This document shows positions 6,288 to 55,175 of a stretch of DNA of 64,000 bases, in pieces; position 1 is the first letter of the stretch; each line of letters opens with the position of its first letter. Source of the DNA: a virus; the IMG/VR virus record IMGVR_UViG_3300049719_000225, positions 34,116-98,115 of that record. One strand, given 5' to 3'. Below the pieces are notes generated by a model. The model made no database searches and was not told where the DNA came from. It saw only the letters and a program-made list of their open reading frames with translations. The position numbers were made by a program, and so were the translations under genes.

Positions 6288-7943
6288 ATGAAAGCCCCCA
6301 CCGCAAAGAAACACCCGATCATCGCCGTCAGGCGCGCAGGCGTTCCGCTCATCGCATTCGAGACGAGCGATCCCGCTCAGACCATCGTGCAGGTCAACAA
6401 GGCCCTCAATGGTAGCTCCTCCAACGTTCCGCTCCTGCGGTGGGACATCGTGAGGGGACTCGTTGGCCTGAACCCTCTCGGTCAGCAGCGTGTCCAGTCC
6501 ATCCTCAGCAAGTGGCTCAAACAGGAGGGGGCCGGTGAATCCAAGGAGGAGCAGGCCGAGCGCCAGGCGGCCACCTGTGACCCGTCCTTCACGCTGAACC
6601 TCCTGCGCAAGGTGGCCGAGGACTTCACGCCCGCCAAGCCGAGCCTCATCGACAGCGGCCTCATCTTCTTCATGAACGCCCACCTGTTCTTCAAGTCTGA
6701 GGTGGTGCTGCAGGCCATGTGGAACCTCCGTGACGCCCTGAAGCCCACGGCTGCCACGCTGGTCGTCCTCTGCCCCGCCATGAAGCTGCCCGAGGAACTG
6801 ACGCACGATGTCGTGGTCATCACTGAGCCGCTGCCGAACGCCGAGGAAGTCGGCGTCATCGTGGACAGCATCGCCAAGGACGCCAAGTGCGACATCGATC
6901 CCGCCGACAAGCCGAAGGTGATCGACACCGTTCTTGGCGTCAGCGCCTTCGCCGCCGAGCAGGCCCTTGCTATGAGCATCGGCCCTGTGGACGGCAAGGT
7001 GGTCCTAGACCGTGACGAACTGTGGGAGCGCAAGCGCAAGATGGTCGAGAACACCGAGGGCCTGACGATCCACCGTGGCAAGGAGTCCTTCAACGACGTG
7101 GGCGGGCTCTCCAACGTGAAGGCCTTCCTCACGAAAATCCTCCAGAGCGGCAACAACCCCGTCCGCTGCATCGGCTTCATCGATGAGATCGAGAAGATGT
7201 TCAGCGCTGCCTCCACGGGCGGCGACATGAGCGGCGTGTCGCAGGACCAGCTCAAGGTGCTTCTCACCGAGATGCAGGACAACGACATCCCCGGCATCAT
7301 CTTCGTTGGGCCTCCTGGCACGGGCAAGAGCGCCGTCGCCAAGGGCGCGGGTTCGCTCGCCGAGGCCGAGGTGATCAGCATCGACACGGGTGCCATGACG
7401 GGCAGCCTCGTTGGCCAGTCGCAGGCCAAGATCAGGAGCGCCTTCGCCACGTTCAAGGCGGTGTCGCAGGGCAAGGGCCTGTTCATCGCCACCTGCAACA
7501 AAATCGCTGCCCTGCCGCCCGAACTGCGCAGGCGCTTCACGCTCGGCACGTTCTACATCGACCTGCCGAACGCCGAGGAGCGTGCCGCCATCTGGCCGCT
7601 CTGGCTCAAGAAGTACGCCGCCATGGAGGGCAGCAAGCTGACGCTCAAGAGCGAGCAGCCCGACGACGAGGGTTGGACGGGTGCCGAGATCAAGGCCTGC
7701 TGCGATGTCGCCTATCGGGCGAACATCTCCCTCAAGGAGGCTGCGTCCTACATCGTCCCCGTCAGCAAGTCGTCCGCTGACCAGATCAAGGCCCTGCGCC
7801 AGATGGCCTCTGGAAAGTTCATCTCGGCCAGCAAGGCGGGCATCTACCAGTACGTTGAGAACGAGGCCGACGCTGCGGCTGCGGCCTCCCTTGACGGCAC
7901 GAAGCGCCAGACCCGCAGGTTCGGCAGCGAGGAGAAGGCTTAA
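6288..7943 (+). CDS. Ycf46-type AAA+ ATPase
   Basis: DVGGL..VK, FIDEIEKMF, Walker A GPPGTGKS, LPPELRRRF, WTGAEI. Confidence 0.88.
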   Translation: MKAPTAKKHPIIAVRRAGVPLIAFETSDPAQTIVQVNKALNGSSSNVPLLRWDIVRGLVGLNPLGQQRVQSILSKWLKQEGAGESKEEQAERQAATCDPSFTLNLLRKVAEDFTPAKPSLIDSGLIFFMNAHLFFKSEVVLQAMWNLRDALKPTAATLVVLCPAMKLPEELTHDVVVITEPLPNAEEVGVIVDSIAKDAKCDIDPADKPKVIDTVLGVSAFAAEQALAMSIGPVDGKVVLDRDELWERKRKMVENTEGLTIHRGKESFNDVGGLSNVKAFLTKILQSGNNPVRCIGFIDEIEKMFSAASTGGDMSGVSQDQLKVLLTEMQDNDIPGIIFVGPPGTGKSAVAKGAGSLAEAEVISIDTGAMTGSLVGQSQAKIRSAFATFKAVSQGKGLFIATCNKIAALPPELRRRFTLGTFYIDLPNAEERAAIWPLWLKKYAAMEGSKLTLKSEQPDDEGWTGAEIKACCDVAYRANISLKEAASYIVPVSKSSADQIKALRQMASGKFISASKAGIYQYVENEADAAAAASLDGTKRQTRRFGSEEKA

Positions 7944-12535: not shown

Positions 12536-12978
12536 CAGAGATGGATGAGCCACGCTCCTGATACGCTCACGTAAACAGGAGGATTGTTCAGGTTGTTGAC
12601 CACGAATACGCCGTAGGTGTCGGGCTGATCAAGGGGCCACACCTGGGCTGGAGGGAACACGCCCACCGTACCTGGGATGTCCACGCCCACGTACGCCAGT
12701 GGCTCTCCCGGAGGTCCAGCTAGGAGATCAGCTCTGCTTCCGTACAAGCCCGCATACACCGAGTTGTAGGTCGGGTTGTTTTTCATGGGTGGGGCCGATA
12801 GCACCAACATGCGGATGAGGTGCACACTGAGCCAGGAGAGCGTGGCCCTCTGACCCTGTGCCAGCTGAAGCATGGTCACAGTCTGCTCAACACCTGGTTC
12901 GAGCATTGTCTCTGGCAGATTGAAGGGCACCCACAGGTATCGCCCGAGATCGTCCTCGGTTATGAATTGGGAAGACAT
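12535..12978 (-). CDS. putative structural protein, paralog of 13481..13999
   Basis: Shared P..LP.T.(L/I)EP, (T/A)L(S/T)WL and VNN/CNN motifs. Confidence 0.6.
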   Translation of the reverse strand: MSSQFITEDDLGRYLWVPFNLPETMLEPGVEQTVTMLQLAQGQRATLSWLSVHLIRMLVLSAPPMKNNPTYNSVYAGLYGSRADLLAGPPGEPLAYVGVDIPGTVGVFPPAQVWPLDQPDTYGVFVVNNLNNPPVYVSVSGAWLIHL

Positions 12979-13484
12979 GGTTGTTTCTGTTGCAACATGC
13001 GCCGATACGTCCTGATGCTGTGACAGTTTGCACATACTAAGTCACATTTCGCTATCTCCTCTTCTATCCTTTTGATACTATGGCTTTTTGCACGACTTTC
13101 TGATAGCTCAAAACTCTTGTCCCTCTTATGGTCAAAGTGCATCACGTAAAACGGATAGCGGGTGTTACAGTCTGTACAGGGTTTGTCTTTCTGAGATCGT
13201 ATGAAATCTCGCTTCTTTTCCTGACATCGTTTGACGGCTAGTCGTTTTACCTGCGGGTTTCTGGCAGTGCTAAGTCTTCCACGAACCCGACCAAATTCCT
13301 TGCAGGCTTCACAGCGACACCGATGTCTAAGATATTCATTTTCAGTCCCATGCTTTGGAGGAGAACGCCTGACGCCTTTCTCAGGGCCACTCTTCAAAAA
13401 AGGCACGGATTCTCCAGCGATACGACGCCTGTAACGCTTCATCGTCTCTCTCTGTGCTACGTGCAGGGAATCAGAAAAGATCAT
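12960..13484 (-). CDS. HNH homing endonuclease
   Basis: PCTDC..MHFDH..KCDLVCANCH; ATGA overlap with the upstream stop. Confidence 0.85.
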   Translation of the reverse strand: MIFSDSLHVAQRETMKRYRRRIAGESVPFLKSGPEKGVRRSPPKHGTENEYLRHRCRCEACKEFGRVRGRLSTARNPQVKRLAVKRCQEKKRDFIRSQKDKPCTDCNTRYPFYVMHFDHKRDKSFELSESRAKSHSIKRIEEEIAKCDLVCANCHSIRTYRRMLQQKQPCLPNS

Positions 13485-13999
13485 GCGGGACCCAGGCTCA
13501 TCACGATCTGTCCAGTCACCGTAAGGCGCAGCGACCAGGTGGTGGTGTTGTTGCAGATCACGAAGCTGTACGGGCCAGCAGCCGAGTAGGTGGCTGGTGT
13601 CGTAGACCTGGCGGCGTAGAGTGGCGGCGTATTGGTCGTGGCTGAGCCGATGATGAGCGGATTTTCCTGAGCCGCCTGGGTATTTGGGGACACCAGTGCG
13701 TTGAAATTGTAGTAGAGACCCACGTAGGCCAGCCCATAACCTGGAGTGACGAGTGTGGCATCGCTTGTAGGGAATACGCACACGCCGTCCACAGGAGAAA
13801 TGCTGGCTGTATCAGCTGTGGTAGAGTTGTCGAGAAAGCTCAGCAGGTTCATTTGGAGCCACGTAAGTGTGAACGACTGGGCTGACGAAAGGACGGTGGA
13901 ACTTACCACAAGCCACTGTTCTGGCTCTATTTCCGTGAGAGGCAGGCTTACGGGAAGTGGGATCAGGCTCTCGTATTGAGTGCTGGTGACGTAGCTCAT
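13481..13999 (-). CDS. putative structural protein
   Basis: Paralog of 12535..12978. Confidence 0.6.
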   Translation of the reverse strand: MSYVTSTQYESLIPLPVSLPLTEIEPEQWLVVSSTVLSSAQSFTLTWLQMNLLSFLDNSTTADTASISPVDGVCVFPTSDATLVTPGYGLAYVGLYYNFNALVSPNTQAAQENPLIIGSATTNTPPLYAARSTTPATYSAAGPYSFVICNNTTTWSLRLTVTGQIVMSLGPA

Positions 14000-14505: not shown

Positions 14506-15612
14506 ATGTCCATCTTCATTCCGCCTGCTCGTATTCGTCACGAAGACGAACTCTTCATCAACTCGCTCGCGCTCCAGTATCGCGACTCCTTCTGGGATCA
14601 CGAGACGCTTCGCAGCATCTCCGCCGACGCCCTCCGCATGATTCGGCACCTCGCTTCGAGGTACTCCGACCCTACCTGCATGGAGCTGAACGCCGAGGAG
14701 CTGGAGGCCGAGGGCAGGCGGAAATTCATCGAGCAGGTCACCGTCGTAAAAGTATTGACGGGTCTGCCCCAACGGTTACACATTGGTGATCTCGTGGTCT
14801 CCTTCAACGGTGCTCCCGTGTCGGATACGTCACAGTTGGCTAGAGAGATAGGCAGGTGCGCACCGAGGTCCGAGGCCGTAATCGAGTATTTGCGTTGGCC
14901 CAAAACCAGAAAAAACGAGGAAGAGGACAAGGAAGACAACAAGCCGAAAATGATGAAGGCTGGGGCCATAAAGTTCACGCTGGGCGACGAGGATGGGAAA
15001 GCTACCGTCTCCGGTGTCACGTTCAAGGAGATGGATGATGACACACGCTGGACAGGCCTGTCCGTCGAGAATTTCAACCCCTATGCCGCCGTTGTGGACG
15101 ATGTGGATTCAGACGATTCACTGGTTTGTGGACGTGCTCCGAGGCCGCCCACGAGGGTCGAACTCTTCAGCTGGTTGAAGTGTTGCGCCAACAACCACAT
15201 TCGGGGCATCGTCCATCGTTGTCGGTTCACTGTGAGGCGCACGGGACGCCGGGTGCCGTCCAAGGACAGCAATGTGGACTGGAACAGATCGTTCAAGCCT
15301 GAGGTGAGTCTGGAGGCGGCCTCGGAGGACGAGTTCATGAACAGGGCCGTGGAACGGGCGGCCAGCGTGTGGGACTCCCATGCGGTGCAGGAGTTCGATG
15401 AGGATATGGGGGCGTCGAGGTACGCCTACCGCAGTTTCTCCCATCCTTCCAATTCCAATCTTACTATCAAACTCATCAGTTTACATCTGCGTCTTCTACC
15501 AAATGATCTCGTCTCTATCGACAACTGCGCCTACCTCAACCTCCTCGCCGACCATTACCGTGAAAACGGATGCTCGGTCAGGTACACTTACACGCCACAG
15601 GCATCCGCATAG
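14506..15612 (+). CDS. sigma-70-like factor, N-terminal part (region 2) with PDZ-like insertion
   Basis: IRHLASRY..EELEAEG and FSWLKCCANNHIR flank LHIGDLVVSFNGAPV..L.REI..VIEYLR. Confidence 0.55.
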   Translation: MSIFIPPARIRHEDELFINSLALQYRDSFWDHETLRSISADALRMIRHLASRYSDPTCMELNAEELEAEGRRKFIEQVTVVKVLTGLPQRLHIGDLVVSFNGAPVSDTSQLAREIGRCAPRSEAVIEYLRWPKTRKNEEEDKEDNKPKMMKAGAIKFTLGDEDGKATVSGVTFKEMDDDTRWTGLSVENFNPYAAVVDDVDSDDSLVCGRAPRPPTRVELFSWLKCCANNHIRGIVHRCRFTVRRTGRRVPSKDSNVDWNRSFKPEVSLEAASEDEFMNRAVERAASVWDSHAVQEFDEDMGASRYAYRSFSHPSNSNLTIKLISLHLRLLPNDLVSIDNCAYLNLLADHYRENGCSVRYTYTPQASA

Positions 15613-15613
15613 C

Positions 15614-16843
15614 GAGTCTCCGGAAGCAGTCCTGGCGGATTTGGAGTTCTTGGTCTACCATCAACTCACGAACCCAAACCCGCAGGCATGCACGCTTGCG
15701 GAGATCGACAGTTTTCGCGGGAGAAAATCCAAGGGTCCCATCAAGGTGGACATCACTGAGGACAATCTCGCGGATGGCCTGGGGATGCCCCGTGAACTTT
15801 TTCACCAGGTGCGCTCAGGCATAAAGGAGAAAATCGCCCACCACATGACACTCCAACCACACGAACAGGCCCACCACACAGCAGTAATGGCCCTTGAAAG
15901 GCTCTTCGAGGTGCACGTACCCAGGCTCATCGAGCCCATTGTCGTCCGTCGCATCTTCACGATGAAGGCCCGTGCCGACTACAAGAAGATCATCAACGGA
16001 TGGACGGACCCAGGTACTGGCGTTCATTTGTCGTTCGAGCAGATCTCGGACCTGTTGCGGACGGTGGGGGCCAAGCCCCCGGTCATGGACGCCAATCAGA
16101 CCACGCTCGCTTGTTTCGGTATTCTTTGGGAGGCGAACAACAATGCCTGCCGCAACTGTGACCTCTTTGCATCCTGCAACGCCGAGGCAGCCACACTCGG
16201 GCTGGCCATCCCCATGACATCGACCACTGCTAGCGTACTAGACAAGGGCGGATTCAACCTGTCACCGAAGCTGTTGCCCGCCGTAGCCAAGGTGCGCACC
16301 GCCCACAAGACAGACGAGAGCGCCCGGCCCCAGCTCTCAACCAAGACCGACAAGCCCGTAACCTCTTCCCTCGCCGAGGAGGAGATGGTGAACTACCTGG
16401 AGAAGAATTTCTGGGGGTTCAACTGCTTCATCTACAAGTACTACACGCACAGAGGCGACACGAGCATGAACAAGGGTACCAGCTACCTGTTCTGGCTTGG
16501 CCGCCTTCTGGACGGAAAACGCACGAAGCGCACCGAGGACGGTGGTCAGCTCAGGCTCGCATTCATTCCGCCCAACAAACCGGAGGTGAAGGAGCCGCAG
16601 GAGGGCGAGTCGCTGCCCCCACCCCCACCCTATCCGCCCGCCTGGTGGCTGGAAATGCGTTCCAAACTGGAGAAAATAGGCGGCAGCTACTATCTTCCCT
16701 TGAACTGCGAGTACAGCACACTGGTGGAGCTGTGCGAGAAACAGGCTCAATGCAGGCCTTCCCACGTTGAGTCCAGGCCTCCCCGGCCCAAGAAACCGAA
16801 GAAGGCCAAGTCCCTATGCCCGAAACCTCCGTCCTCGACCTGA
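15614..16843 (+). CDS. +1-frame continuation: region-4-like HTH plus Cys-rich domain
   Basis: LADLEFLVY..ITEDNLADGLGM..IKEKI; CFG..CRNCDLFASC; no convincing own start. Confidence 0.5.
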   Translation, partial: ESPEAVLADLEFLVYHQLTNPNPQACTLAEIDSFRGRKSKGPIKVDITEDNLADGLGMPRELFHQVRSGIKEKIAHHMTLQPHEQAHHTAVMALERLFEVHVPRLIEPIVVRRIFTMKARADYKKIINGWTDPGTGVHLSFEQISDLLRTVGAKPPVMDANQTTLACFGILWEANNNACRNCDLFASCNAEAATLGLAIPMTSTTASVLDKGGFNLSPKLLPAVAKVRTAHKTDESARPQLSTKTDKPVTSSLAEEEMVNYLEKNFWGFNCFIYKYYTHRGDTSMNKGTSYLFWLGRLLDGKRTKRTEDGGQLRLAFIPPNKPEVKEPQEGESLPPPPPYPPAWWLEMRSKLEKIGGSYYLPLNCEYSTLVELCEKQAQCRPSHVESRPPRPKKPKKAKSLCPKPPSST

Positions 16844-17163
16844 CCGACAGCGAACTCCTAGACAAGGACATCATTCGTCTGAGAGACGTGGTGCCCAGCC
16901 AGTTTTGGGTGCTTGCCGTCCTGGGTACAATCATGCTGGTGGGAGCGGCCTACCAAATCACGCCTCGCGTTGGCTGGGAGGTGGCGGCCCTGGCAGCCGG
17001 ATCCGCCTTCTGCTTTTTCTGCGCGGGCCTGGTGGCCACGGTGAAGGTGCTATTCATGCTGAGCAGGAGCCAGCTTGAGGTGCGCATCCTTGCCACGCAG
17101 CTTCCCCGTGAGGCCGCCTCACTTGTTGTGTCCCACATGAGCCCGTCAGGTCTCGGAAGGTAG
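16816..17163 (+). CDS. small membrane protein
   Basis: Two hydrophobic helices. Confidence 0.55.
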   Translation: MPETSVLDLTDSELLDKDIIRLRDVVPSQFWVLAVLGTIMLVGAAYQITPRVGWEVAALAAGSAFCFFCAGLVATVKVLFMLSRSQLEVRILATQLPREAASLVVSHMSPSGLGR

Positions 17164-17755
17164 GGAAAATGTTGTGGTAGACCTGGTATATCCAGGTCTC
17201 GAACTGTTTCACGGTCATGTTGTGTTTTGCGATATTGCAGACAGTGCAGCAGGGCACGCAGTTTTCTTTCGTGTAACCGAGAGTTGAGTCCAGTCTGTCC
17301 AATCCATTGCAGAGCGTTGTTTCGTTAAAGAGCCGCCTCAGATTTTTTCTTCCAGGATTGTATCCAAGCTTTGCGGGTTCCCCACAGTAGTGACAACTCT
17401 GAGACGAGATTCTGTCAAACTCTTCATGGGTAAGTGCGAAAGGAAATCCTCTCTTCCTGGCGTTTCTCCTGTAAAATGAAACTCTGAAATGAAGATAGGC
17501 CTCGCCCGGTTTCTTGCGACCTATTGGACGGCTAGACATCTCCTTTCTTCTCAGACATCCACAGTTTGTGGTGCCACCGGATACTAAATCATGCCGTCTC
17601 GTGCCGGTGGTAAGTCTTCCACATGCACATTTGCAGAGATAGCGACGAGTGACGGCCATCTGTCCCACACTCTTTCCCGTTTTGATCGGTCTACGATGCG
17701 GTTCTAACTCCTCGATCACTGTTAAGTTCCCGAAGGTTTTTCCAATTATGTCCAT
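17054..17755 (-). CDS. HNH homing endonuclease
   Basis: FGNLTVI..CKCACG..CGCL; CHYCG..GLDRLDS..GY..NCVPCC..CN. Confidence 0.85.
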   Translation of the reverse strand: MDIIGKTFGNLTVIEELEPHRRPIKTGKSVGQMAVTRRYLCKCACGRLTTGTRRHDLVSGGTTNCGCLRRKEMSSRPIGRKKPGEAYLHFRVSFYRRNARKRGFPFALTHEEFDRISSQSCHYCGEPAKLGYNPGRKNLRRLFNETTLCNGLDRLDSTLGYTKENCVPCCTVCNIAKHNMTVKQFETWIYQVYHNIFPTFRDLTGSCGTQQVRRPHGEAAWQGCAPQAGSCSA

Positions 17756-17767
17756 ACTCTACATACC

Positions 17768-19672
17768 ATGATAAGTTCTATTGCCGTGATCACTTACCGC
17801 CGTTTGGGTCCTCTGCGGGCTTTCCTGCAGTCCATTGAGTCGGTCTGTCCACAATATCCGCTAGCGGTGTTTGAGGACTGTGCCACCTATGACGGCACGG
17901 CGGCCTTCCTGATGAAGGACGCCACCCCTCTGGGCTACGATAGTGAGTTTGACTCTGACGGCTACGAACACACCAGCCCTTCGGGAAGAAAATGGACGGC
18001 TTGGCTGTCCAAGAGGAACGAGGGTGTGGTCGGTGGTTCCAACAAGGCGTTGAGATGGATGGAACGCAACAAGTTTGACCACCTGTGCCTCTGCAATGAT
18101 GACCTGTTGGCCAAGGGAGACTTCCCCAGCGTCTATCTGGCAGCACATCAGAAGCTAAGCGTGGGGCTGTTCACATTCTGTGACCTGAAAAACACGGCTC
18201 GGGCCACGTACGAAGGCCCCACTGTTCCTGTGAAAGGGCTCCGGGTGAAGATACTGCCCCGCATGGTTGGGATGATGATGAGCGTCACCTCCAAGCTTGT
18301 CTACGACTCTCCAGAAGCCATCGGTTATTTTGACGCCACCTTCGGACGGTTTGGAAACGAGCATTGCCTGTCATTTGATACTCCCTTAATAACTAGAAAT
18401 GAGGGACTTATTAAATTAGGGGATGCGGATGGTAAGTGGGTTGAAGTGTGGAATGGTGATTCATGGACAGCTCTGAAACCCCGCAAAACGGGTTCGGGAA
18501 GAAAACTCTATCGCGTGACACTGAGTGACGGCTCCTATCTTGATTGCACGAGTGAACATCGCTGGTCGGTAACCCGCAGAAACAAGCCTAATCGATGGGC
18601 TCCGAGCCGCACTGATGAACTTACTAACGCATATCGTTGTGAACCCACGCAGCTCGATGGAAATTTTGGAAAGAAGAGGTACCCGCACGCTTACACACTC
18701 GGGTTTGCTGTTGGAGACGGATTTGTCGATAATACCACTGGAAAAGTGATCGTGCCGTTGAATGGAAACAAGGACATCCAATGCCCTGTGGCAGGAACCA
18801 GGTTCAAATACACCAGGAAGGGGATATGTAAGGGGGCTATGGTTGATAGTTCCAGATTTGTGAAAGCGAGGTTGGTGCAAACTTTGAAGTTGGATGCCGA
18901 TGCGTTGCTGCCCCTGTTTTTTTGGAATCGTCATAGCATTTTGAGTTTCATCGCCGGTCTTGCAGACGCAGACGGCACACACGGAGGCTCGAAATACGGC
19001 ATCCGGATTTCCATCAGTCGGGAGGACAGGGTGAGGCGACTGCAGCTCTTGCTCACTCGTGTTGGTATAAAATCGTCCATATTTTTATGCGGTAAAAAAG
19101 GTTCTTTGACCAATTTTGGACCTAGGGGAGAAGATCTCTGGGGGTTACAAATCACTGATTGTAGGAACATACCCTGTCATAGATTGGATACGACCAGGGG
19201 ACGGCAGCCCATAAAAAAGGGCAAATACCAGGTAGTTAGATCAGTGACAGAACTCCCAGGTCTCCACGATACTTACTGTTTGACTGAGCCCAAAAATCAC
19301 AAGGCTCTGTTTGGAAATGTGCTCACGCATCAATGCGACTACAACAACAGAGCCCGTCTCATGGGATTCATCAACCTGAGCAACCAGGCCCAGCTTGCCC
19401 TGGACGTGGAGACAGTCACACTTTCCAGCCAAATGAGTGAGTCAGGGCCTATTCCAAGTGCTATCTTGGCCTTTGAGCGGGGGCCTTTGGATGCGCGGGC
19501 TAATGCGGATGCTGCACGGGCCTCTCGCCTTTACACGTACGAGCACCTCTATCGACCCTATCGACTACCCTACCCCGTCTATGCCGATGCCTTTGGAATG
19601 CCCAACCAAGGCATACCCACCCATGAACTGGAACGACTGGGGTACGAGATGGTGATGGATCGCGTAACGTAG
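17768..19672 (+). CDS. GT2-family glycosyltransferase with intein
   Basis: EDCA, NEGV..N, LCNDD and IGYFD..FG.EH motifs; intein CLSFDT...THQ|C. Confidence 0.8.
   Translation: MISSIAVITYRRLGPLRAFLQSIESVCPQYPLAVFEDCATYDGTAAFLMKDATPLGYDSEFDSDGYEHTSPSGRKWTAWLSKRNEGVVGGSNKALRWMERNKFDHLCLCNDDLLAKGDFPSVYLAAHQKLSVGLFTFCDLKNTARATYEGPTVPVKGLRVKILPRMVGMMMSVTSKLVYDSPEAIGYFDATFGRFGNEHCLSFDTPLITRNEGLIKLGDADGKWVEVWNGDSWTALKPRKTGSGRKLYRVTLSDGSYLDCTSEHRWSVTRRNKPNRWAPSRTDELTNAYRCEPTQLDGNFGKKRYPHAYTLGFAVGDGFVDNTTGKVIVPLNGNKDIQCPVAGTRFKYTRKGICKGAMVDSSRFVKARLVQTLKLDADALLPLFFWNRHSILSFIAGLADADGTHGGSKYGIRISISREDRVRRLQLLLTRVGIKSSIFLCGKKGSLTNFGPRGEDLWGLQITDCRNIPCHRLDTTRGRQPIKKGKYQVVRSVTELPGLHDTYCLTEPKNHKALFGNVLTHQCDYNNRARLMGFINLSNQAQLALDVETVTLSSQMSESGPIPSAILAFERGPLDARANADAARASRLYTYEHLYRPYRLPYPVYADAFGMPNQGIPTHELERLGYEMVMDRVT
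18365..19333 (+). mobile_element. intein with LAGLIDADG endonuclease and C-terminal Gln (323 aa)
   Basis: CLSFDT; LDCTSEHRW; LGFAVGDG and FIAGLADADG; TYCLTEP..GNVLTHQ|C. Confidence 0.88.
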
Positions 19673-42296: not shown

Positions 42297-42549
42297 GGTC
42301 TAACTACCGTCTACTATTTTTGTTTACTAATGTCCAGAAAGCAAGGGTTGGGCATCCAGTGTCTGGCAGGTTGCAACCCACCTGTCTTTGATGGTGGGCT
42401 GTGCGTCCACCCGACTGCGCGTCCGCAGTCGTACTCCCCAACTACCTCAGAGTGGTCTGCGCCCTCAGGCCTTCAGGTCGTTTCGCTTATCGCCGCCATA
42501 CCAGGCAGCGGGCTACTCCACTTATCCGGTGTTCCGTACAGGCGCAGAG

Positions 42550-46374: not shown

Positions 46375-46418
46375 AGCGTAACTACTCCTAATATCGAAAG
46401 AACTGCGCTACCATAAAA

Positions 46419-49540: not shown

Positions 49541-49578
49541 GGAGTAACTACTCACGTACGGATAGAACAGATACCAAA

Positions 49579-54961: not shown

Positions 54962-55175
54962 AGTTAACTAACTACTATGGATCAGTGCGAAATGGTGCAC
55001 GGCCTTACTACTTGGCTAAACGTCCGAAAGTTTTCAGCGGCTTACTAGGCTTGGTTATTGCAAGGCAGGTATCTCTAGGCGCTAGACCCCGCTCGTGCTC
55101 TCCTACGCGAGTCCCGCAACGTTTCAGGATACTCGTACGACTGGAGCGCAACCCATCTTGCGACAGGCACTGAAA

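Follow-up and report, generated by a model that had tools for sequence, protein, structure and literature searches.

How does a phage make use of a sigma-like gene that has been cut in two? The question is raised by a locus in the window, a 64,000-nucleotide (nt) stretch of phage DNA that corresponds to positions 34116-98115 of a 98-kb IMG/VR virus record. Two overlapping open reading frames (ORFs) lie there on the same strand and in different frames, and resemble the front and back halves of a single sigma-like protein. A sequence-only reading of this DNA had described a sigma-70-like gene split at a UAG and continued in the +1 frame, and had proposed that its expression may need recoding. 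The layout is as it was described: ORF1 runs 14506..15612 and ends GCA TAG C (15607-15613, with the TAG stop at 15610-15612), the second half is in the +1 frame, and a second GCA stands at 15626. The split is real, derived and conserved in a clade of relatives. As to what it means, the answer argued for here, as a probable one, is that the two ORFs give separately translated polypeptides that would make up a natural two-subunit sigma-like factor. The features on which the argument turns are these:

14506..15612, + strand: ORF1, frame 1, 368 amino acids (aa), with sigma domain-2-like helices, a PDZ insert and a 67-aa tail
14734..15141, + strand: PDZ domain, an insertion within the sigma-2-like fold, at about aa 77-212
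15409..15622, + strand: extra segment relative to unsplit homologues, 214 nt (3n+1), made up of the ORF1 tail, the stop and 10 nt
15409..15609, + strand: ORF1 tail (GASRY...PQASA), 67 aa, frame 1
15503..15505, + strand: conserved frame-2 ATG, the proposed start of ORF2, 107 nt 5' of the ORF1 stop and inside the ORF1 tail
15503..16843, + strand: ORF2 as proposed, 446 aa, with a 40-aa leader rich in Ser, Thr and Pro, a sigma domain-4-like helix-turn-helix (HTH), a four-cysteine region and a C-terminal alpha/beta domain
15623..15853, + strand: the sigma domain-4-like HTH, EAVLADLEFLVY...LADGLGM...IKEKI, identified with VIA-align
16112..16177, + strand: four invariant cysteines, C204, C216, C219 and C225 of ORF2, which are invariant columns of the 74-sequence alignment A7
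16370..16786, + strand: C-terminal alpha/beta domain, YjbR/DUF1801-like, with a weaker likeness to the C-terminal domain of T4 MotA

A single-chain family with a split clade

The family was surveyed with a profile built from five unsplit homologues. It finds 199 representative proteins at E<=0.001, and 125 at E<=1e-30; most of the 199 are single ORFs of 470-540 aa that span profile positions 30-510, so the fused form is the rule in this family. In the fused homologues the domain order is sigma-2 then sigma-4. Related DNA loci come from one metagenome scan, as three contigs from other metagenomes: L001, L002 and L003, the last 99.8% identical to L001 across 9.8 kb. Further homologues are known as proteins (P0002-P0004, P0009, P0010 and P0012, together with the fused P0005-P0007). 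No close relative was found in the GenBank phage collection (blastn and tblastn), in IMG/VR or in GTDB genomes.

The nearest unsplit homologues, P0005, P0006 and P0007, read ...DRDM-EDILDPIEFLVY..., and the window reads ...DEDM-[15409-15622]-EAVLADLEFLVY..., without other gap. Deletion of 15409-15622, one of the joins put forward in the sequence-only reading, does give ...EFDEDM-EAVLADLEF..., exactly where these three proteins are continuous. As had been supposed, a single sigma-like gene has been broken at this locus, between the part for sigma-2 and the part for sigma-4, and the comparison with relatives that had been suggested as a check bears this out: the fused proteins are contiguous and lack the segment, and the split relatives keep an equivalent insert (214 nt in the window, 205 nt in L001, 202 nt in L002; all 3n+1). 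In the window, L001, L002 and L003 alike, the sigma-2-like and sigma-4-like parts lie on separate ORFs in different frames, ORF2 being always +1; the presence of the same +1 ORF pair on three contigs from other metagenomes removes the suspicion of an assembly error.

In a tree built from 74 members of the family, the five split forms group as one clade (support of 100 in the Shimodaira-Hasegawa-like approximate likelihood ratio test, SH-aLRT), nested in successive unsplit outgroups and sister to P0005/6/7. The PDZ insert is present in every split form examined and in no unsplit form examined (the gap in P0005-7 spans it), and a dedicated search for longer, PDZ-type fused proteins found none. 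P0002-P0004, L001 and L002 align with ORF1 over its full length at 52-67% identity. Across the split lineages the sigma-2 parts keep 80-91% aa identity, with change mainly at third positions, and ORF2 keeps 57-68%. Both halves are under purifying selection, and the arrangement is conserved. The split is old; it is also recent enough to trace, as some 200 single-chain relatives remain.

Other members of the family have been altered in their own ways. Six unsplit proteins (P0014, P0017, P0024, P0025, P0026 and P0028) carry a tandem second sigma-4-like unit of about 90 aa exactly at the place of the window's split junction, and P0015 (899 aa) has a LAGLIDADG-type intein inside a sigma-2-like helix (LKS/C...VHN/CVNNHIKG, the slashes marking its edges). 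The sigma-like gene has been remodelled repeatedly at intein and junction points. P0004, an ORF1-type protein, ends in ...FDPLLASSA, which resembles the conserved ORF2 start (P-DALLSALEF in P0012); to judge from this ending, the frame switch in its lineage may lie a few codons further downstream.

Sigma-like halves

How far do the two halves deserve the name of sigma? The case is a structural one. The AlphaFold2 model of ORF1 (predicted local distance difference test, pLDDT, 80; 98-sequence alignment) was compared with known structures by VIA-align, and sigma-2 structures occupy more than 20 of the 50 rows at Z 6-7.8, values that helical bundles, by VIA-align's own note, can reach by chance. 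The best sigma-2 matches are SigE (8b3z; Z 7.7, root-mean-square deviation (rmsd) 3.3, 80/80 residues) and sigma-70 (1sig; Z 7.3), and 3ugo (sigma-2 with -10 DNA; Z 6.9) and T4 gp55 (7d7d_F; Z 6.7) are matched as well. The PDZ domain passes the Pfam threshold (PF13180, PDZ_2; 30.4 bits vs a cutoff of 27, E 4.8e-7, aa 77-134) and is seen also in structure, as the PDZ of RseP/MucP/HtrA (Z 6.5-7.1, rmsd 2.0-3.1).

The ORF2 model has a pLDDT of 83; its leader residues 1-37 fall below 50, and the rest is confident. For residues 29-117, about 30 of the 50 VIA-align rows are sigma-4, LuxR-type or related HTH structures at Z 5-6.7, among them 8jzt (Z 6.7, rmsd 2.1, 56/57 residues), 2h27 (sigmaE region 4 on -35 DNA; Z 5.8), 5fgm and 6jhe. 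At these moderate Z values the model appears to contain a sigma domain-4 HTH fold, C-terminal to domain 2 as a sigma factor has it. The four-cysteine region that follows is a probable metal site. Residues 290-428 match 2kfp (Z 7.5), 2fki (Z 6.9) and 5jlt, the MotA C-terminal domain (Z 5.0).

Sequence models are less generous. Pfam at E<=1 offers no sigma model for ORF1 (PDZ_2 only) and nothing for ORF2, and Sigma70_r2 and Sigma70_r4 are unmatched also in ten fused homologues; hmmsearch with the family profile against PDB sequences gives no match at E<=10; and PHROG models, like Pfam and the PDB sequences, leave the protein unrecognised apart from the PDZ domain of ORF1. Foldseek against the PDB returned only the PDZ domain for the ORF1 model, and no significant sigma match for either model, the sigma domains surfacing only in the exhaustive VIA-align search. 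The ESM Atlas, queried with ORF1 and its tail, gave only PDZ look-alikes, with nothing usable for the tail. Because the Z values are middling, the protein is called sigma-like here, and not a proven member of the sigma-70 family. With that reserve, the sigma likeness first claimed from motifs now goes beyond motif-spotting, as the ORF1 model aligns with sigma-2 structures and the ORF2 model with sigma-4 structures.

The extra segment as coding sequence

The extra segment is G-poor and C-rich (G 17-22% vs 26-31% in the flanks; window, L001 and L002). It had been considered as a piece to be removed from the message; its pattern of change is that of coding sequence translated in frame 1, and not that of an intron or of a gap over which ribosomes hop. 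The frame-1 tail stays open in four lineages, every indel in it is 3n, and its length across the split forms is 59-67 aa. Substitutions counted in frame 1 are fewest at position 2 and most numerous at position 3 (position 1 being tied in one comparison): the differences at the three codon positions are (18, 8, 21), (16, 9, 16) and (13, 8, 15) before the ATG, and (15, 12, 17), (13, 8, 15) and (10, 8, 19) in the frame-2 overlap. At the aa level the tail is 39-52% identical, vs 80-91% for the flanking sigma-2 parts, a rate about that of the PDZ domain. Most of it is predicted to be disordered (pLDDT <50 at aa 304-336), with one helix at aa 338-353.

As to the source of the tail, a partial tandem duplication of the sigma-4 unit is not supported. 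The hint of it came only from over-extension by MAFFT and HMMER (FSHPxN..LTI vs LT.PN..A.TL); BLASTP found nothing, hhalign gave a probability of 0.1%, and a hidden Markov model (HMM) of the unit run with --max scored about 0 bits, marginally above shuffles (p 0.03-0.15), with inconsistent alignments. A split intein, with the tail as N-intein and the ORF2 leader as C-intein, was rejected by inspection: the tail begins with G, not C/S, and the leader has no terminal HN followed by C/S/T and is not conserved.

Where translation of the second half would start

Frame 2, which is +1 to ORF1, is open from 15341 to the TGA at 16841-16843. It must be entered upstream of 15623, because the residues that follow the ORF1 stop (E/D-A-L/V-L-..-EFLVY) match the fused homologues. 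An ATG lies at the homologous place in the window (15503), L001 (6986), L002 (6373) and L003 (6979), and the N-terminus of P0012 corresponds to it; from this ATG to the ORF1 stop no lineage has a stop in frame 2, and in L001 and L002 the ATG is the first start after a frame-2 stop. The overlap of ORF1 and ORF2 so defined is 110 nt in the window. No other start codon is conserved upstream of the block: the TTG of the window and L001 is TTA in L002.

The public gene call for ORF2 (P0008) is 15650-16843, starting at TTG 15650 (LVYHQ...). This start clips EAVLADLEF, which is conserved in the unsplit homologues, and it cannot be the family's start because the codon is TTA in L002; the public call is corrected by the present analysis.

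Initiation at the ATG would fit the habits of the phage. Shine-Dalgarno (SD) motifs stand upstream of only 8 of the 60 long ORFs of the window, and the 71 nt around the ATG fold weakly (-3.4 to -5.2 kcal/mol in the window, L001 and L002); RNA that is G-poor and nearly unstructured at the ATG suits SD-independent initiation. The conserved ATG and the open frame favour a separate, putative start for ORF2; in synonymous shuffles of ORF1 with local codon usage, an open frame 2 together with the ATG has a probability of 0.045, 0.11 and 0.11 per genome.

Several points weigh against separate translation of a two-subunit sigma-like factor, besides the caution already attached to the sigma-2 Z values. 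The structure matches of the sigma domains are middling throughout (Z 6-8), and no sigma sequence model matches. The shuffle probabilities of the three lineages cannot simply be multiplied, as these share ancestry. The ATG itself is no more than what a conserved N/H-D in frame 1 entails. In the leader no signature of coding in frame 2 is seen, the second positions of that frame being the most variable, and only its openness and the ATG argue for translation; the missing signature is, for its part, expected of an overprinted linker. Finally, two regularities at the ORF1 stop would be expected under recoding as well: a C follows the stop in all three lineages (TAG C, TGA C, TGA C), and in all three the conserved E/D-A-L-L block resumes a mere 2-3 codons past the stop.

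With these points weighed, the history proposed for the locus is as follows. The ancestor would have been a single chain, with sigma-2-like part, linker, sigma-4-like part, cysteine region and C-terminal domain in that order. One clade would then have acquired some 200-214 nt (3n+1) exactly at the N-terminal edge of sigma-4; ORF1 now ends in a translated tail of 59-67 aa and a stop, and the downstream half lies in +1. In a phage that hardly uses SD sites, ORF2 would be translated on its own from ATG 15503, and would gain a disordered leader, about 40 aa long, that can change freely in sequence. On the host RNA polymerase the two proteins would sit next to each other, the sigma-2 part contacting the clamp helices of beta-prime and the sigma-4 part the beta flap, which is how other split sigma factors are arranged; a role in holding the pair together or in regulating it may fall to the PDZ domain, which this clade also gained.

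Recoding and rejoining

The chief rival is programmed +1 recoding at the ORF1 stop, whether by frameshift, by four-base decoding of UAG-C/UGA-C or by a short hop. ORF1, tail included, would then be fused to the sigma-4 half, and a long single-chain sigma would be made beside the short ORF1 product or in its place. The constant +1 relation of ORF2 in every lineage speaks for this, as do the regularities at the stop, and the six fused homologues with a second sigma-4 unit accept an insert of about 90 aa at the same junction. The window taken alone offers more: two GCA codons spaced by 19 nt, the first of them followed by UAG as in the take-off site of T4 gene 60, and a stable stem right after the stop (-40.3 kcal/mol, z -2.7).

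The relatives do not sustain the case. The last sense codon differs among them (GCA, GTC, TCG, and ACC in L003), and none of the four re-pairs at +1 (GCA would meet CAU, GUC UCU, UCG CGU, and ACC CCU). Only the window has a landing codon that matches and lies directly ahead of the conserved block (GCA 15607 and 15626), so that the 19-nt GCA-to-GCA hop offered in the sequence-only reading has its pair in that one genome; in L001 the one in-frame landing match would pass over conserved residues, and in L002 there is no match. Nor is the downstream stem shared (z -0.4 in L001 and -1.2 in L002, with differing structures), and an upstream SD-like sequence (GGAGG) occurs in L001 only. C is in any case the commonest base after stop codons in the window phage, at 29/80. 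Recoding also leaves the conserved frame-2 ATG and open frame unexplained. No conserved shift-prone P-site codon was found among the window, L001, L002 and L003, no conserved stimulator, SD-like upstream or structural downstream, among the window, L001 and L002, and no conserved pair of take-off and landing codons of the T4 gene 60 type. Recoding at the stop is without conserved support and the site is a weak candidate for it, so that the earlier suggestion of a need for recoding is not supported and the mechanism itself is an unlikely one.

A phage tRNA with anticodon UCUA had been suggested as the decoder. The tRNA-like gene at 31204-31280 (+ strand; Rfam 38 bits, ARAGORN label 'Arg/Pyl') is peculiar in its anticodon arm, where C.A and A.A mismatches flank a stem of 3 bp and the loop has 6 nt (UUCUAA) or 8 nt (AUUCUAAA). 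The 8-nt loop gives the anticodon UCUA, which reads UAGA; altogether AGA, UAG and UAGA are open to this tRNA. None of these is the UAGC at the window's site or the UGAC at that of L001 and L002, so a UCUA tRNA does not fit, and the tRNA is not linked to the split gene.

Two simpler ways of crossing the junction were rejected. For transcriptional slippage the sole G5 run (15408-15413) is broken in L002; for amber read-through, frame 1 beyond the TAG holds 48 unrelated codons, and the stop of the relatives is TGA.

A wider proposal is that the halves are deliberately re-joined or gated, through a +1 shift or through the PDZ domain; even with both routes taken jointly, it is doubtful. By the first, some ribosomes would shift +1 at the stop-C without re-pairing of the tRNA, and the ratio of the short, sigma-2-only form to the long sigma would time late transcription. 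By the second, the PDZ domain might capture the C-terminal peptide of its partner (or of a tagged or host protein), so assembling or regulating the split sigma. The clade that gained the PDZ domain is also the one in which the gene was split, the tail was added and ORF2 acquired a basic extension at its C-terminus.

Removal, decay and artefact

It has also to be asked whether the 214-nt segment is taken out, by a self-splicing intron or by a long bypass of the gene 60 type, to restore EFDEDM-EAVLADLE. Removal would yield a gap-free, perfect match to the unsplit homologues; the segment has a base composition of its own; and both the family and the phage attract mobile elements (the intein of P0015; inteins and HNH endonuclease genes in the window). 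Against an intron, Rfam finds no family in 15200-15850 at E<=10, the segment folds no better than its shuffles (z +0.29), and the usual group I and group II introns are larger than 214 nt; against a long bypass, there is no matched pair of take-off and landing codons around ATG 15406 and GAA 15623. Four lineages, moreover, keep the segment open as an extension of frame 1, with codon periodicity and with indels of 3n, and its removal by either means is very improbable.

A broken, decaying gene or an assembly artefact is equally hard to credit, given the same architecture in four independent assemblies, sigma-2 parts whose change is dominated by third positions and an ORF2 as well conserved as reported above. 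A hint of decay comes from L003. In it (6838-7086, vs L001 6845-7093) the loss of 7 nt (AGCGGGC, flanked by AGC repeats) cuts ORF1 short ahead of the last conserved helix and the tail, and 7 of the 13 L003-L001 substitutions, all of them transitions, fall inside the 94-nt overlap of ORF1 tail and ORF2 leader. The cluster could reflect relaxed constraint, a recombination patch or strain-level hypervariability.

The phage and its surroundings

CheckV puts the completeness of the 98-kb record at 43%, which implies a phage of jumbo size. Its window has a G+C content of about 57% and carries 34 tRNA genes and a tmRNA gene. HNH-type endonuclease-like ORFs flank the sigma-like locus on both sides (window 12960-13781 and 17054-17755, both - strand; also L001:8429-9154, - strand), and fit a region rich in mobile elements. 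Nearby, the glycosyltransferase of L002 (7879-8805, vs window 17768-19672) is one uninterrupted 308-aa protein, ...FGNEHCDYNN...; it is an intein-free allele and confirms the intein insertion in the window's 634-aa ORF.

The heptamer GTAGTTA occurs 9 times in the window vs 2.1 expected, a count reached by no shuffle. Most copies lie a few bases 5' of ATG starts in the tRNA-rich region; examples on the - strand are 42301-42307, 46379-46385, 49545-49551, 54969-54975 and 61099-61105. GTAGTTA may serve as a phage promoter from which nearly leaderless mRNAs arise, or as a signal for initiation without SD, and it might be a candidate target of the sigma-like factor.

Comparison with known systems

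Four known systems invite comparison. In B. subtilis sigK/skin, as here, a sigma gene is interrupted between its N-terminal and C-terminal parts; skin, however, is 48 kb long and excised by a recombinase, whereas the window's insert has 214 nt, codes for a portion of ORF1 and gives no indication of being excised. The T4 gene 60 bypass resembles the window, and the window only, in a GCA take-off codon followed by UAG and in an identical landing codon; the gap is 16 nt and not 50, the pair has no counterpart in L001 or L002, and a conserved hairpin at take-off was not found. The +1 frameshift of prfB, the gene of release factor 2 (RF2), shares with the window a stop followed by C and a downstream part in +1; the window differs in having no CUU-U-like slippery codon and no conserved SD-like stimulator, and its downstream ORF has a conserved ATG. 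For the recoding field, then, the locus is a negative result.

The closest parallel is with the two-subunit sigma factors: T4 gp55/gp33, SPO1 gp33/gp34, B. subtilis SigO/RsoA and Tn916 Sig7/Sig8 (bioRxiv 10.64898/2026.10.01.756105; PMC12867686). In these pairs the promoter-melting function (sigma-2-like) and the flap or -35-side function (sigma-4 or its stand-in) reside on two products, both of them needed with host RNA polymerase (same sources). The window's locus is like them in placing a sigma-2-like part and a sigma-4-like part on separate genes, and its ORF1 aligns with T4 gp55. It is unlike them in several ways. It has no sequence homology to the named pairs, and separate translation is put forward here as the likely mode; its ORFs overlap by 110 nt in +1 register; the N-terminal half carries a PDZ domain and a novel tail, and the C-terminal half a cysteine region and a YjbR/MotA-like C-terminal domain.

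A further difference is one of age. Known split sigma factors are few, old and diverged, and their origin cannot be traced; the split in the window is recent, and its position can be fixed to the residue. Because single-chain relatives survive, the site of the break, the DNA inserted at it, the overprinted leader and the PDZ domain acquired with it are all open to direct reading. The comparison also draws attention to an unannotated family, about 200 clusters of phage sigma-like proteins with a MotA/YjbR-like C-terminal domain, and within it the split clade amounts to a natural experiment in how a sigma factor tolerates a cut at the linker between sigma-2 and sigma-4.

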